4,974 nt of DNA from a virus. Its lineage: Duplodnaviria > Heunggongvirae > Uroviricota > Caudoviricetes. Shown here one piece after another: positions 1 to 4,974 of the stretch. Both the position numbers and the translations under genes were made by a program. Where the stretch lies: the IMG/VR virus record IMGVR_UViG_2684622552_000003, one strand, 5' to 3'. Numbering within the stretch: the first letter of the stretch is position 1; each line of letters starts with the position of its first letter. The notes beneath the pieces were generated by a model. That model was not told where the DNA came from. It was given only the letters and a program-made list of their open reading frames with translations, and ran no database searches.

Positions 1-1074
1 CAGCCGAGTAATGATGCGTCCGGCTATCTGGATTTTTTCAAAGGAGAGATAGGGAAAACACATCTGGCCCAGGAGCTGTGGACACAAATTGATAACGGTC
101 AGCTTGCCCCGGATCTGGCTGAAATCAGGACATCCATTACGAATGTCAGCAATGAAATCACCGAGACCGTTAACAAGACACTGAAAGACCAGAGTGCAGC
201 GATCCAGCAGATACAGAAGGTTCAGGTTGACACCAGTAATAACCTGAACAGTATGTGGGCTGTGAAGCTGCAACAGATGAAGGATGGACGCCTTTATATT
301 GCGGGTATCGGTGCCGGTATTGAGAATACCCCGGACGGCATGCAGAGTCAGGTGCTTCTGGCTGCAGACCGGGTGGCATTTATTAACCCGGCGAATGGTA
401 ACACCACTCCTGCACTGGTCACACAGGGCGGACAGACGTTTATTAATGAGGCGCTGATCAAGTTCCTTATTGCTCCCACGATTACCAGTGGTGGTAATCC
501 TCCGGCATTCTCCCTGACACCTGACGGCAAGCTGACTGCTAAAAATGCGGATATCAGTGGCAGTGTGAATGCGAACGCCGGGACGCTCAACAATGTCACG
601 ATTAATGAGAACTGTCTGATAAAAGGAAAACTGTCTGCCAGTCAGATTGAGGGCGATATTGTCAAAGCGGTGGGAAAGGCTTTTCCACATGATCCGCGCG
701 AATCAGAATTTAAACCGTGGCCGTCAGGTACGATTACTGTGAGGATAGATGATGATCAAAAATATGACAGACAAATTGTCATTCCTGCTGTTGCATTTCG
801 TGGGGCGAAGCACCGGCAGGCATCCACAAACAGTGAATATTATTCATCCTGTCGTCTTGTTGTAAAAAAGAATGGTTCTGTAATTTATGACAAATCGACC
901 AACGATGTTACAGCCATTTACACAGGTATCATGGATATGCCAGCCGGTTCTGGAGGAATAACTCTTGAGTTTTCAGTTTCTGCGTCAAACGGGAATTATT
1001 ATCCTTCAGCGACTATCAGCGATTTGCTTGTGGTCATTATGAAAAAATCCACAGCTGGTATCAGTATCAGCTGA
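1..1074 (+). CDS. J: Central tail fibre / host specificity protein J, C-terminal ~358 codons (5'-partial; start lies upstream of the window)
   Basis: Frame 1 is open from base 1, with no stop before the TGA at 1072-1074; the ORF track only reports it from the first internal Met at 253. The translation (…[41 protein letters not shown]…[45 protein letters not shown]…[18 protein letters not shown]) closely resembles the receptor-binding C-terminus of lambda gpJ as I recall it. Confidence 0.9.
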
Positions 1075-1093
1075 ATGTTTAAAACCCAAACCG

Positions 1094-1117
1094 GGCGCCA
1101 GAAATGGCGCCTTTTTT
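1094..1117 (+). terminator. Rho-independent terminator downstream of J
   Basis: Perfect 6-bp GC stem GGCGCC (1094-1099) / GGCGCC (1106-1111) with a 6-nt loop AGAAAT, followed directly by a T6 run (1112-1117). It lies 20 nt after the J stop codon. Confidence 0.65.
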
Positions 1118-1129
1118 ATTGCAGAAAAG

Positions 1130-1136
1130 TGAGAGG
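1130..1136 (+). promoter_or_regulatory. Shine-Dalgarno sequence for lom
   Basis: GAGAGG at 1131-1136, 5 nt upstream of the ATG at 1142. Confidence 0.5.
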
Positions 1137-1141
1137 TAATT

Positions 1142-1213
1142 ATGCGTAAAGTATGTGCAATTCTTTTGTCCGCAGCAGTATTCCTGACCGTATCGGGTAC
1201 GACAGTGAGTGCA
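1142..1213 (+). other. Sec signal peptide of Lom (24 aa, predicted cleavage after VSA)
   Basis: Basic N-terminus (MRK), hydrophobic core (VCAILLSAAVFLTV), and a small-residue VSA motif before AEHQ. The cleavage site is judged by eye, not by a predictor. Confidence 0.6.
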
Positions 1214-1741
1214 GCAGAACACCAGAGCACATTAAGCGCAGGATATATTCATGCTCATACGAAAATGCCAGGCGGTGATAATCTGAATGGTATTAACGTG
1301 AAATACCGTTATGAATTTACGGACACGCTTGGGATGGTGACGTCATTCAGTTATGCCAACGCCGAAGATGAGCAAAAAACGCATTACAGCGATACCCGCT
1401 GGCATGAAGATTCCGTTCGTAACCGCTGGTTCAGCGTGATGGCGGGGCCGTCTGTACGCGTGAATGAATGGTTCAGCGCATATGCGATGGCGGGTGTGGC
1501 TTACAGCCGTGTTTCGACTTTCTCCGGGGATTATCTCCGCGTAACTGACAACAAGGGGAAAACGCACGATGTGCTGACCGGAAGTGATGATGGTCGCCAC
1601 AGTAACACGTCTCTGGCGTGGGGGGCTGGCGTGCAGTTTAACCCGACCGAATCCGTGGCCATTGATATTGCTTATGAAGGCTCCGGCAGTGGTGACTGGC
1701 GCACTGACGGTTTCATCGTGGGTGTCGGTTATAAATTCTGA
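1142..1741 (+). CDS. lom: Lom: Ail/Lom/OmpX-family outer-membrane beta-barrel protein (prophage moron, lysogenic-conversion type), 199 aa
   Basis: Complete ORF from ATG 1142 to TGA 1739-1741. It has an N-terminal signal peptide (MRKVCAILLSAAVFLTVSGTTVSA|AEHQ) and the C-terminal signature …SLAWGAGVQFNPTESVAIDIAYEGSGSGDWRTDGFIVGVGYKF with a terminal aromatic residue, typical of an OM beta-barrel and near-identical to the lambda Lom C-terminus as I recall it. Its position between J and stf matches lambda and Rac. Confidence 0.93.
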   Translation: MRKVCAILLSAAVFLTVSGTTVSAAEHQSTLSAGYIHAHTKMPGGDNLNGINVKYRYEFTDTLGMVTSFSYANAEDEQKTHYSDTRWHEDSVRNRWFSVMAGPSVRVNEWFSAYAMAGVAYSRVSTFSGDYLRVTDNKGKTHDVLTGSDDGRHSNTSLAWGAGVQFNPTESVAIDIAYEGSGSGDWRTDGFIVGVGYKF

Positions 1742-1767
1742 TTAGCCAGGTAACACAGTGTTATGAC

Positions 1768-1794
1768 AGCCCGCCGGTTCAGGCGGGCTTTTTT
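1768..1794 (+). terminator. Rho-independent terminator downstream of lom
   Basis: 8-bp stem AGCCCGCC (1768-1775) / GGCGGGCT (1782-1789) with a 6-nt loop GGTTCA, followed by a T-run (1789-1794). It begins 27 nt after the lom stop codon. Confidence 0.75.
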
Positions 1795-1800
1795 GTGGGG
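1795..1800 (+). promoter_or_regulatory. Shine-Dalgarno sequence for stf
   Basis: GTGGGG at 1795-1800, 5 nt upstream of the ATG at 1806. Confidence 0.4.
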
Positions 1801-1805
1801 TGAAT

Positions 1806-4800
1806 ATGGCAGTAAAGATTTCAGGTGTACTGAAAGACGGCACAGGGAAACCGGTACAGAACTGCACCATTCAGCTGAAGGCAAAACGTAACAGTACCAC
1901 GGTCGTGGTGAACACGCTGGCCTCAGAAAATCCGGATGAAGCCGGGCGTTACAGCATGGACGTTGAGTACGGTCAGTACAGCGCTATTCTGATGGTGGAA
2001 GGATTCCCGCCGTCACATGCCGGGACCATCACCGTGTATGAGGATTCAAAGCCGGGGACGCTGAATGATTTTCTCGGTGCCATGACGGAGGATGATGCCC
2101 GTCCGGAGGCACTGCGCCGTTTTGAACTGATGGTGGAAGAGGTGGCGCGTAACGCGTCCGCAGTGGCACAGAACACGGCAGCCGCGAAGAAGTCAGCCAG
2201 CGATGCCAGCACATCTGCCAGTGAGGCGGCAACCCATGCGACTGATGCCGCAGGCTCAGCACGCGCAGCCAGCACGTCCGCCGGACAGGCCGCATCGTCT
2301 GCTCAGTCAGCATCTTCCAGCGCAGGAACGGCATCAACAAAGGCCACGGAAGCGTCAAAAAGTGCTGCCGCTGCAGAGTCCTCAAAAAGCGCGGCGGCCA
2401 CCAGTGCCGGTGCGGCAAAAACGTCAGAAACGAATGCGGCAGCGTCACAACAATCAGCCGCCACTTCTGCATCCACCGCGACCACGAAAGCGTCAGAAGC
2501 TGCCTCCTCAGCCAGGGATGCGTCGGCTTCAAAAGAGGCGGCAAAATCATCAGAAACGAGCGCAGCCTCGAGCGCCAGTAGTTCCGCTTCCTCGGCAACG
2601 GCGGCAGGCAATTCCGCGAAAGCGGCAAAAACGTCCGAGACGAACGCTAAGTCTTCTGAAACGGCAGCGGAACAGAGTGCCTCCGCAGCAGCAGACTCAA
2701 AAACAGCGGCTGCATCATCTGCCAGCGCCGCGTCAACAAGTGCCGGGCAGGCCTCAGCCAGTGCCACCGCTGCCGGAAAGTCGGCAGAAAGTGCCGCATC
2801 GTCTGCTTCAACAGCCACAACGAAGGCTGGCGAAGCCACTGAACAGGCCAGCGCAGCAGCGAATTCTGCTTCCGCAGCGAAGACATCCGAAACGAACGCG
2901 AAAGCGTCGGAAACCAGCGCAGAATCCTCAAAGACGGCTGCCGCATCGTCAGCCAGTTCGGCGGCGTCATCGGCATCATCTGCGTCTGCTTCAAAAGATG
3001 AGGCGACCAGACAGGCGTCAGCGGCGGCAGAGAGTGCGTCAACGGCATCCACGAAGGCGACAGAGACGGCAGGAAGTGCGACGGAGGCAGCTCAGAGCAA
3101 AAATGCGGCTGAATCCGCGGCAACGCGCGCCGAGACAGCTGCAAAACGGGCAGAGGATATTGCATCTGCCGTGGCGCTTGAGGATGCAAGCACGACGAAA
3201 AAAGGGATAGTACAGCTCAGCAGTGAGACCAGCAGCGAATCTGATACGCTCGCAGCAACACCGAAAGCGGTAAAGGCTGCAAACGACAACGCTGAAACAC
3301 GCCTTCGGAAAAACCAGAACGGGGCAGATATACCTGATAAAGACACCTTCGTAAAAAATATTGGCGCAGCGAAAGCTGCCAGCGGCAATATCAGCATCGG
3401 AGGAGACAGCAATAACTGGACGACGGCGCAATTTATCGAGTGGCTGGAGTCTAAGGGGGCGTTCAATCATTCATACTGGATGTGTAAAGGCTCATGGGCT
3501 TACGCTGCCAATAAAATCATCACGGATACCGGTTGTGGGAATATACAACTTTCTGGCGCTGTAGTTGAGGTTATGGGGGGTCGAGAGGCTATGACTATTC
3601 GCATCACCACCCCCACGACCGCAACGAACGGCGGAACCGTCAAGGCACAATTTACCTACATCAACCACGGTGACAATTATGCGCCAGGCTGGAGACGGGA
3701 CTTTAATCGAGCTGGTGATTCAATGTCAGGCCAGTTAACTTTGGCGGATATGTCACAGCCATTAAGAACACCAGGTGGTGGCATATTTGCCAATGATGGC
3801 AACTTGTATATCAATAAACCGGGTTTCGCTGGATGGATTGATGCGCTCTTTTTGAAATTAACAGGAGGCACAATAACCGGGTCGCTTACCGTTAATGGTG
3901 GCATTAAGGGTAATGCTTCAACGGCTACGAAGCTTCAAACGCCAATAAATATTAATGGTGTTAAGTTTGATGGCTCAGGTGACATCAACATTAATACCTT
4001 AGTGTCCAGAGGTATGGTGGCCGCATTAAGTGGCAATACACAAGGCACCCCAGGCGTTCAGATGTATGAAGCGTATAAAAATGGCTACCCCACGACTTAC
4101 GGCAATGTGCTTCATATGAAAGGTGCGAATGCTGCAGGAGAGGGTGAATTGCTTATCGGCTGGAGTGGTACAAGCGGTGCCCATGCTCCGGCATTTATTC
4201 GTTCACGACGGGATGCTACCGACGCAAACTGGTCGCTATGGGATCAGCTTTACACAACGGCTTATCCTCCTTCAGAGCTTTATCCTGCAGGGGCACCGAT
4301 ACCGTGGCCATCAGACACAATTCCATCTGGTTATGCTCTGATGCAGGGGCAGACTTTTGATAAATCAGCATATCCGAAACTTGCAACCGCTTACCCATCT
4401 GGTGTGATCCCTGATCTGCGTGGATGGACAATTAAGGGTAAACCCGCCAGTGGTCGCGCTGTATTGTCTCAGGAACAGGATGGTATTAAATCGCATACCC
4501 ACAGTGCCAGTGCATCCAGTACGGATTTGGGGACGAAAACAACCAGTTCGTTTGATTATGGTACTAAGTCCACGAATAACACCGGGGCGCATACACATAG
4601 TATTAGCGGGACAGCAAATAGTGCAGGTGGGCACCAACACCAGAGTTCTGGACCATATGCGAATTCTAATAGAACTGCACTCTTTCCTAACGGTTATACC
4701 CAGGTTTCAGTCACAAACGCACCAGTTGTACCACAGGAATCTGGCTCAGGTACGAGCCGTATATCAGGGAAGACATCATCAGATGGAGCACATACCCACT

Positions 4801-4974
4801 CATTGTCTGGTACTGCCGCATCTGCAGGGGCACACGCACATACTGTCGGTATTGGTGCCCATGCACACACTGTGGCGCTGGGTGCACATGGACACACCAT
4901 CACCGTTAACGCTGCTGGTAACGCGGAAAACACCGTCAAAAACATCGCATTTAACTATATTGTGAGGCTTGCAT
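1806..4974 (+). CDS. stf: Side tail fibre protein Stf (StfR-like long form), 1056 codons in the window; 3'-partial only in that the stop codon begins at the final base 4974
   Basis: My own codon-by-codon translation of frame 3 from ATG 1806 shows no stop through GCA at 4971-4973. This ORF is not in the supplied track, presumably because it lacks an in-window stop. The N-terminus [37 protein letters not shown]…[16 protein letters not shown] and the C-terminus …[10 protein letters not shown]…[33 protein letters not shown]…GIGAHAHTV…[28 protein letters not shown] match lambda Stf and Rac StfR as I recall them. The final residues RLA are the normal Stf C-terminus, so the gene ends 2 nt beyond the window. 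Confidence 0.9.
2163..3170 (+). repeat. In-frame periodic coding repeat within stf: 24 consecutive 14-codon (42-nt) units, Ala/Ser/Thr-rich, Ala at position 1 in 22 of 24 units
   Basis: Cutting the Stf translation into 14-mers from [14 protein letters not shown] (codon at 2163) gives 24 units, for example [14 protein letters not shown] / [14 protein letters not shown] / [14 protein letters not shown] / [14 protein letters not shown] / [14 protein letters not shown] / [14 protein letters not shown]. At nucleotide level the near-identical motif GC(A/G)AA(A/G)ACaTC(A/C)GA(A/G)ACGA recurs at 2415, 2541, 2625 and 2877, and the spacings of 126, 84 and 252 nt are all multiples of 42. Confidence 0.85.

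Follow-up and report, generated by a model that had tools for sequence, protein, structure and literature searches.

At least three exchangeable shaft segments make up the patchwork middle of a lambda-type side tail fibre gene

The middle of the side tail fibre gene (stf) carried on a 4,974-nucleotide stretch of phage DNA, referred to here as the window, is a patchwork of at least three exchangeable shaft segments that also occur in Mu, P1/P7, T4 and E. coli prophages, a case of known mosaicism. Positions 3171-4286 very likely encode the middle part of the shaft in a trimeric side tail fibre of the lambda/StfR type, made up of interchangeable cassettes that come from a multi-phage pool and are exchanged by recombination. 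The pool would be common to lambdoid, Mu, P1/P7, P2-like, SSU5-like and T-even phages, and the order of the parts is the PF03406 hinge, an NGADIP linker, cassettes B, C and D, and a lambda-type collar with a His-box (cassette E). Because tail-fibre mosaicism is already textbook knowledge, the finding changes no concept.

Layout of the stf gene

The stf protein, which begins MAVKISG in the translation of its single frame, is encoded downstream of the J C-terminus (ending at 1074) and lom (1142-1741), and the same J-lom-stf order is found in lambda and in the annotated relatives. In all relatives that were fetched tfa overlaps the stf stop, and the window itself ends at the last stf codon. The reading frame is unbroken across all junctions. 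The traits of a lambda/StfR-type Stf are present, namely the PF08400 N-terminus, the position next to J and lom, the collar, the His-box (GAHxHS) and the conserved C-terminus, and K-12 StfR shares 92.5% amino acid identity with the protein over aa 1-522.

Table 1. Coordinates of stf and its parts in the window
Feature	Position	Strand	Basis or remark
stf (side tail fibre) CDS	1806-4973	+	one open frame, 1056 codons; stop just past window end
Tail-attachment domain, N-terminal (PF08400, prophage tail fibre N-terminal)	1806-2207	+	E 7.2e-71, aa 1-134
Ala/Ser/Thr-rich shaft, imperfect internal repeats	2166-3170	+	composition
Conserved hinge (PF03406) and NGADIP linker	3189-3344	+	PF03406 E 1.4e-18, aa 462-503
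Cassette B, predicted Mu S'-type shaft domain	3345-3707	+	PDB 8ju3 residues 178-320, 229.7 bits, ~80% aa identity
Cassette C, linker followed by motif NA.TATKL.T...ING..FDGS (3912-3977)	3708-3992	+	
Cassette D, predicted all-beta shaft domain (NWS.W.QLYTT)	3993-4286	+	confident model, fold search
Cassette E, lambda-type distal domain: collar, His-box repeats, conserved C-terminus	4287-4973	+	
Collar (PF07484)	4290-4433	+	E 3.3e-11, aa 829-876
Variable stretch within E	~4611-4790	+	allele comparison

The PF08400 match covers the full length of the profile, and the nucleotide identity of the N-terminal domain is 99.2% to CH4799 and to an IMG/VR contig (L014), and 90% to lambda. The shaft that follows consists of 38% Ala, 26% Ser and 12% Thr residues, and its repeats fall into dispersed 29-nt families (D1 and D2). 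The hinge, whose sequence has its first letter at 3192, aligns with residues 109-175 of 5yvq/8ju3 in the constant part of Mu S, and together with the NGADIP stretch it is the left recombination linker.

Cassette B is, judging from its sequence match, structurally akin to 8ju3, the S' fibre of phage Mu in the G(-) orientation. It is 75-77% identical to S' of Mu and D108, and it also matches P1 Sv' and P7 Sv. At the nucleotide level, the identity of B is 99.3-99.5% to L014 and E. coli P276M, 90% to the fibre of an SSU5-like phage-plasmid and 71% to the S6aCHROMc type, and the per-block comparison found no B in CH4799 or lambda.

Within cassette C, the original prediction had placed a tail-fibre repeat motif at about 3909-3996 and had likened it to T-even fibres and StfR-type proteins. 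Both the location and the likeness were borne out: the gp37/StfR-type motif is found at 3912-3977 (aa 703-724), a 42-aa stretch of the region is 61-67% identical to gp37 of many T-even phages, with E values between 1e-7 and 1e-10, and K-12 StfR carries one copy, at aa 782, with 16/22 residues identical. The region also matches P1/P7 S and P2-like, Pseudomonas and Acinetobacter fibres. The motif occurs once in the present stf protein, and it does not correspond to the Pfam phage tail-fibre repeat, since PF03406 (Phage_fiber_2) falls on the hinge (aa 462-503). Pfam searches gave no family at E ≤ 1 over 3708-4295, and none when B and C-D were queried separately.

Cassette D is predicted, from its model and a fold search, to be akin to shaft domains; the neighbours of the model are the shaft domains of the T4 gp34 C-terminal region, Mu and pyocin fibres, and the model superposes on 8ju3. 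A single-sequence AlphaFold2 model of aa 456-837 had a mean pLDDT of 35 and was discarded. An alignment of D with the Mu-type D' by hhalign extended over 27 columns only (49.8% probability), and nothing longer than short fragments came from a homologue search in which C-D was the sole query. As a whole the module is 66-70% identical in amino acids to P1 Sv'/P7 Sv over 84-90% of its length, with 59-67% identity between C-D and the start of these proteins. A reading of D as an FN3/WSxWS domain, suggested by a PDB profile match (E 0.24), was rejected after the fold searches, which gave no FN3 match.

The C-terminal 229 aa of stf are of the lambda Stf type. Over aa 826-1056 cassette E has 67.6% amino acid identity to lambda Stf (84-85% at the nucleotide level), and a weak PF03335 match lies in this distal domain. 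The variable stretch within E is 100% identical in S6aCHROMc and P276M and is missing from L014, lambda and Turner.

Breakpoints, nearest relatives and composition

As the original prediction had stated, the middle of the protein is unlike lambda Stf and the lambda-like sequence resumes at about 4287. BLASTN similarity to lambda stf ends at 3276 and returns at 4283, the lambda-like residue string starts at 4287, and a tblastn search with aa 500-825 gave no lambda match, which leaves ~327 aa without a lambda counterpart. Comparison with eight alleles placed the cassette breakpoints near 3280, 3343, 3707-3722, ~3993-4034 and 4287. On the left side, lambda and PhiR26_1 lose similarity at 3276-3280, whereas CH4799, Turner and ev099 lose it at 3340-3343. 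For CH4799, the identity that extends to 3343 includes perfectly matching stretches of 29 and 20 nt; it resumes at 3722, and 74 consecutive nucleotides from 3771 onwards are identical. The interval between 3343 and 3722 is occupied by an unrelated cassette, B'.

The per-block identities to 13 relatives show that the nearest relative switches from block to block, and no uniform nearest homologue was seen along stf. CH4799 is at least 99% identical from J through lom to the N-terminal domain and 99.4-100% identical over D-E, and has no B. L014 is 99% identical over J-N and B, falls to 87% in D and does not have the distal variable stretch. S6aCHROMc, which shares that stretch in full, has D at 78% and B at the lower identity given above, and does not have C. 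In the per-block comparison lambda has only the hinge and E in common with the present allele, and B, C and D are absent from it. These data support an exchange of modules at conserved linkers, as the original prediction had it, but a single module with two junctions proved to be wrong, as there are at least three cassettes.

Protein alignment of lambda and eight other alleles revealed five allele architectures with the same linkers. The beads also occur in other orders, with C-D-C-NGADIP-B-D'-tip in P7 S and C-C-D-B in P0053. The full B-C-D string is covered by 3 clusters among 5.8 billion proteins and in 1 of 5,426 E. coli genomes; the present combination is complete only in L014 and is 5'-truncated in P276M.

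In terms of known systems, the K-12 Rac StfR/ev099/Turner/PhiR26_1/PhiR29_1 type is similar to the present stf in its J-lom-stf position, N-terminal domain, Ala/Ser-rich shaft and PF03406 hinge, and StfR and the lambdoid Stf alleles also share the NGADIP linker, the gp37-type motif, the collar and the His-box distal domain. In contrast, the B' cassette of StfR, ev099 and Turner is unrelated to B and larger, and these alleles have C'/D' cassettes of the Mu type, and the PhiR29_1/S6aCHROMc type has B and D without C. Ur-lambda Stf shares part of the shaft with the present stf and is similar to it in the N-terminal domain (90% nt), the hinge (80%) and the distal domain (84-85% nt), but has ~135 unrelated residues between hinge and collar compared to the ~327 aa of B-C-D, a shorter shaft and a different distal variable stretch. 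T4-type gp37 shares the short motif and gp34 resembles the model of D at the fold level only; otherwise the two are unrelated in sequence to the present stf.

The original prediction also held that codon usage turns AT-richer after the hinge, and implied that the module had lately come in as foreign DNA whose donor was richer in AT. The fall in GC is real: the shaft (aa 121-455) has a GC content of 0.611, and 3171-4286 has one of 0.489. However, GC at the second codon position falls from 0.79 to 0.51 and GC3 merely from 0.51 to 0.465, so that ~80% of the step near 3170 lies at codon position 2; the drop therefore mostly marks the end of the Ala/Ser/Thr-rich shaft and not a change in codon usage. 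When synonymous codons were shuffled among identical residues to obtain the GC3 expected for each block, the observed value exceeded it in the N-terminal block (0.62), in the shaft (0.51) and in B (0.55). Cassettes C (0.385), D (0.405) and E (0.384) fell short of theirs. The sole synonymous-site shift of the gene lies at ~3707, within the proposed module, and this test found none at 4287. The shift runs on through the lambda-like E, so the module is not delimited by it, and the GC3 values are within the range of the adjacent J C-terminus (0.45) and lom (0.52). Together with the dominance of codon position 2 in the step at ~3170-3280, these observations make recent acquisition from an AT-richer donor unlikely.

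Probable route of cassette exchange

From the anatomy of the breakpoints, we infer that the cassettes were exchanged by homologous recombination, probably of a relaxed Rad52/Red type, over short conserved linkers. Experiments have demonstrated that lambda stf-tfa undergoes homologous recombination with the prophages Rac and Qin (PMC3945230), and works cited there (refs 71-74) are given as long-standing documentation of stf exchange among unrelated phages.

The entry of cassette B could instead have been due to site-specific recombination by an invertase of the Gin/Cin/Pin family at a gix/cix-like site, perhaps one still acting in trans. B and C-D are homologous to parts of Sv'/Sv that are encoded in the invertible segments of Mu, P1 and P7, and the breakpoint at 3340-3343 sits 5-8 nt upstream of FVKNIGAAK (3348-3374), which is homologous at the protein level to the gix-encoded FIQNLGLQE. 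PinQ is able to act in trans on fibre genes of another prophage (PMC12529663), and invertase-driven stf exchange was proposed earlier (Sandmeier 1994, as cited in PMC3945230). Against this, the homologous 26-mer has only 10/26 positions in common with Mu gix and 12/26 with P1/P7 cixR, and the best 26-mer match anywhere in the window (15/26, at 3808) is at chance level. A search for properly flanked AAACC-NN-GGTTT cores recovered the P1, P7 and Mu controls but gave no such core in the window or in the lambdoid alleles. The lone NGADIP linker of the window resembles the copy internal to Sv', so that the crossover site has been lost, and the junctions at 3707-3722, ~3993 and 4287 are unrelated to invertase sites. 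Invertase-mediated entry of B is accordingly judged improbable.

Mu S', P1 Sv' and P7 Sv are similar to the present stf in that the hinge resembles the S constant part and B and C-D are homologous, but there these parts belong to an invertible segment, and no gix or cix was found in the window. The P7 block order differs from the B-C-D order here, and in place of a Mu/P1-type tip with its U/U' chaperone the tip and chaperone type is that of lambda Stf/Tfa.

Possible role of the middle cassettes and use of the junctions

Cassettes B, C and D may be beads of the shaft, or spacers, on which the length and articulation of the fibre depend; between hinge and collar the present allele is ~190 aa longer than lambda. 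The receptor would be contacted by the distal domain E further downstream, together with its chaperone Tfa. In Ur-lambda Stf the distal domain is the receptor-binding end and binds OmpC, and the N-terminal part accepts fusion to foreign distal parts (PMC11338833). Since the end that binds the receptor is located downstream, with a variable cassette of its own, an effect of the middle cassettes on host range, which the original prediction had expected, is hypothetical.

A doubtful alternative is that the middle cassettes bind a receptor or glycan laterally, as a second binding activity, and that their exchange would re-target the phage. The cassettes derive from segments of Mu and P1 that vary and determine host range (PMC12529663), and the complete B-C-D string is as rare as described above. 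However, Mu S' and P7 S have a separate tip downstream of their B and D-type domains, D has its neighbours in structure among shaft domains, and the collar/His-box distal domain with its hypervariable stretch is kept and varies independently of B-C-D across alleles. It is still less probable that the rare B-C-D string provides extra lateral binding or an altered reach, with a host range that changes independently of the OmpC-type tip, or that it is still rearranged in trans by Pin-family invertases, which are encoded beside tfa in close relatives.

The practical value of the allele is an exact natural map of the cassette-exchange sites that a lambda-type side fibre tolerates: the hinge with the NGADIP linker (3189-3344), 3707-3722, the surroundings of the gp37-type motif (~3912-3992), 4281-4316 and the variable stretch in the distal domain (~4611-4790). 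Such junctions are sought by engineers of chimeric lambda delivery particles (PMC11338833). The "invertible" fibre domains of Mu and P1 also circulate among non-invertible lambdoid fibres.

That the mosaic stf is an assembly chimera rather than a real gene is scarcely credible, as the independent contig L014 is collinear with the window over 1-4640 (95.8% identity) and thus over every junction up to 4640, the 5'-truncated copy in E. coli P276M has aa 368-1056 at 99%, and the frame is intact through all junctions.

An Rfam search of both strands returned no family, and promoter-like sites were at chance level. Minus-strand ORFs within 3039-4431 (52-143 aa) were treated as spurious because they overlap a strongly supported plus-strand gene. 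Four weak terminator-like hairpins were present compared to 1.4 ± 1.1 expected, all of them within the coding frame.

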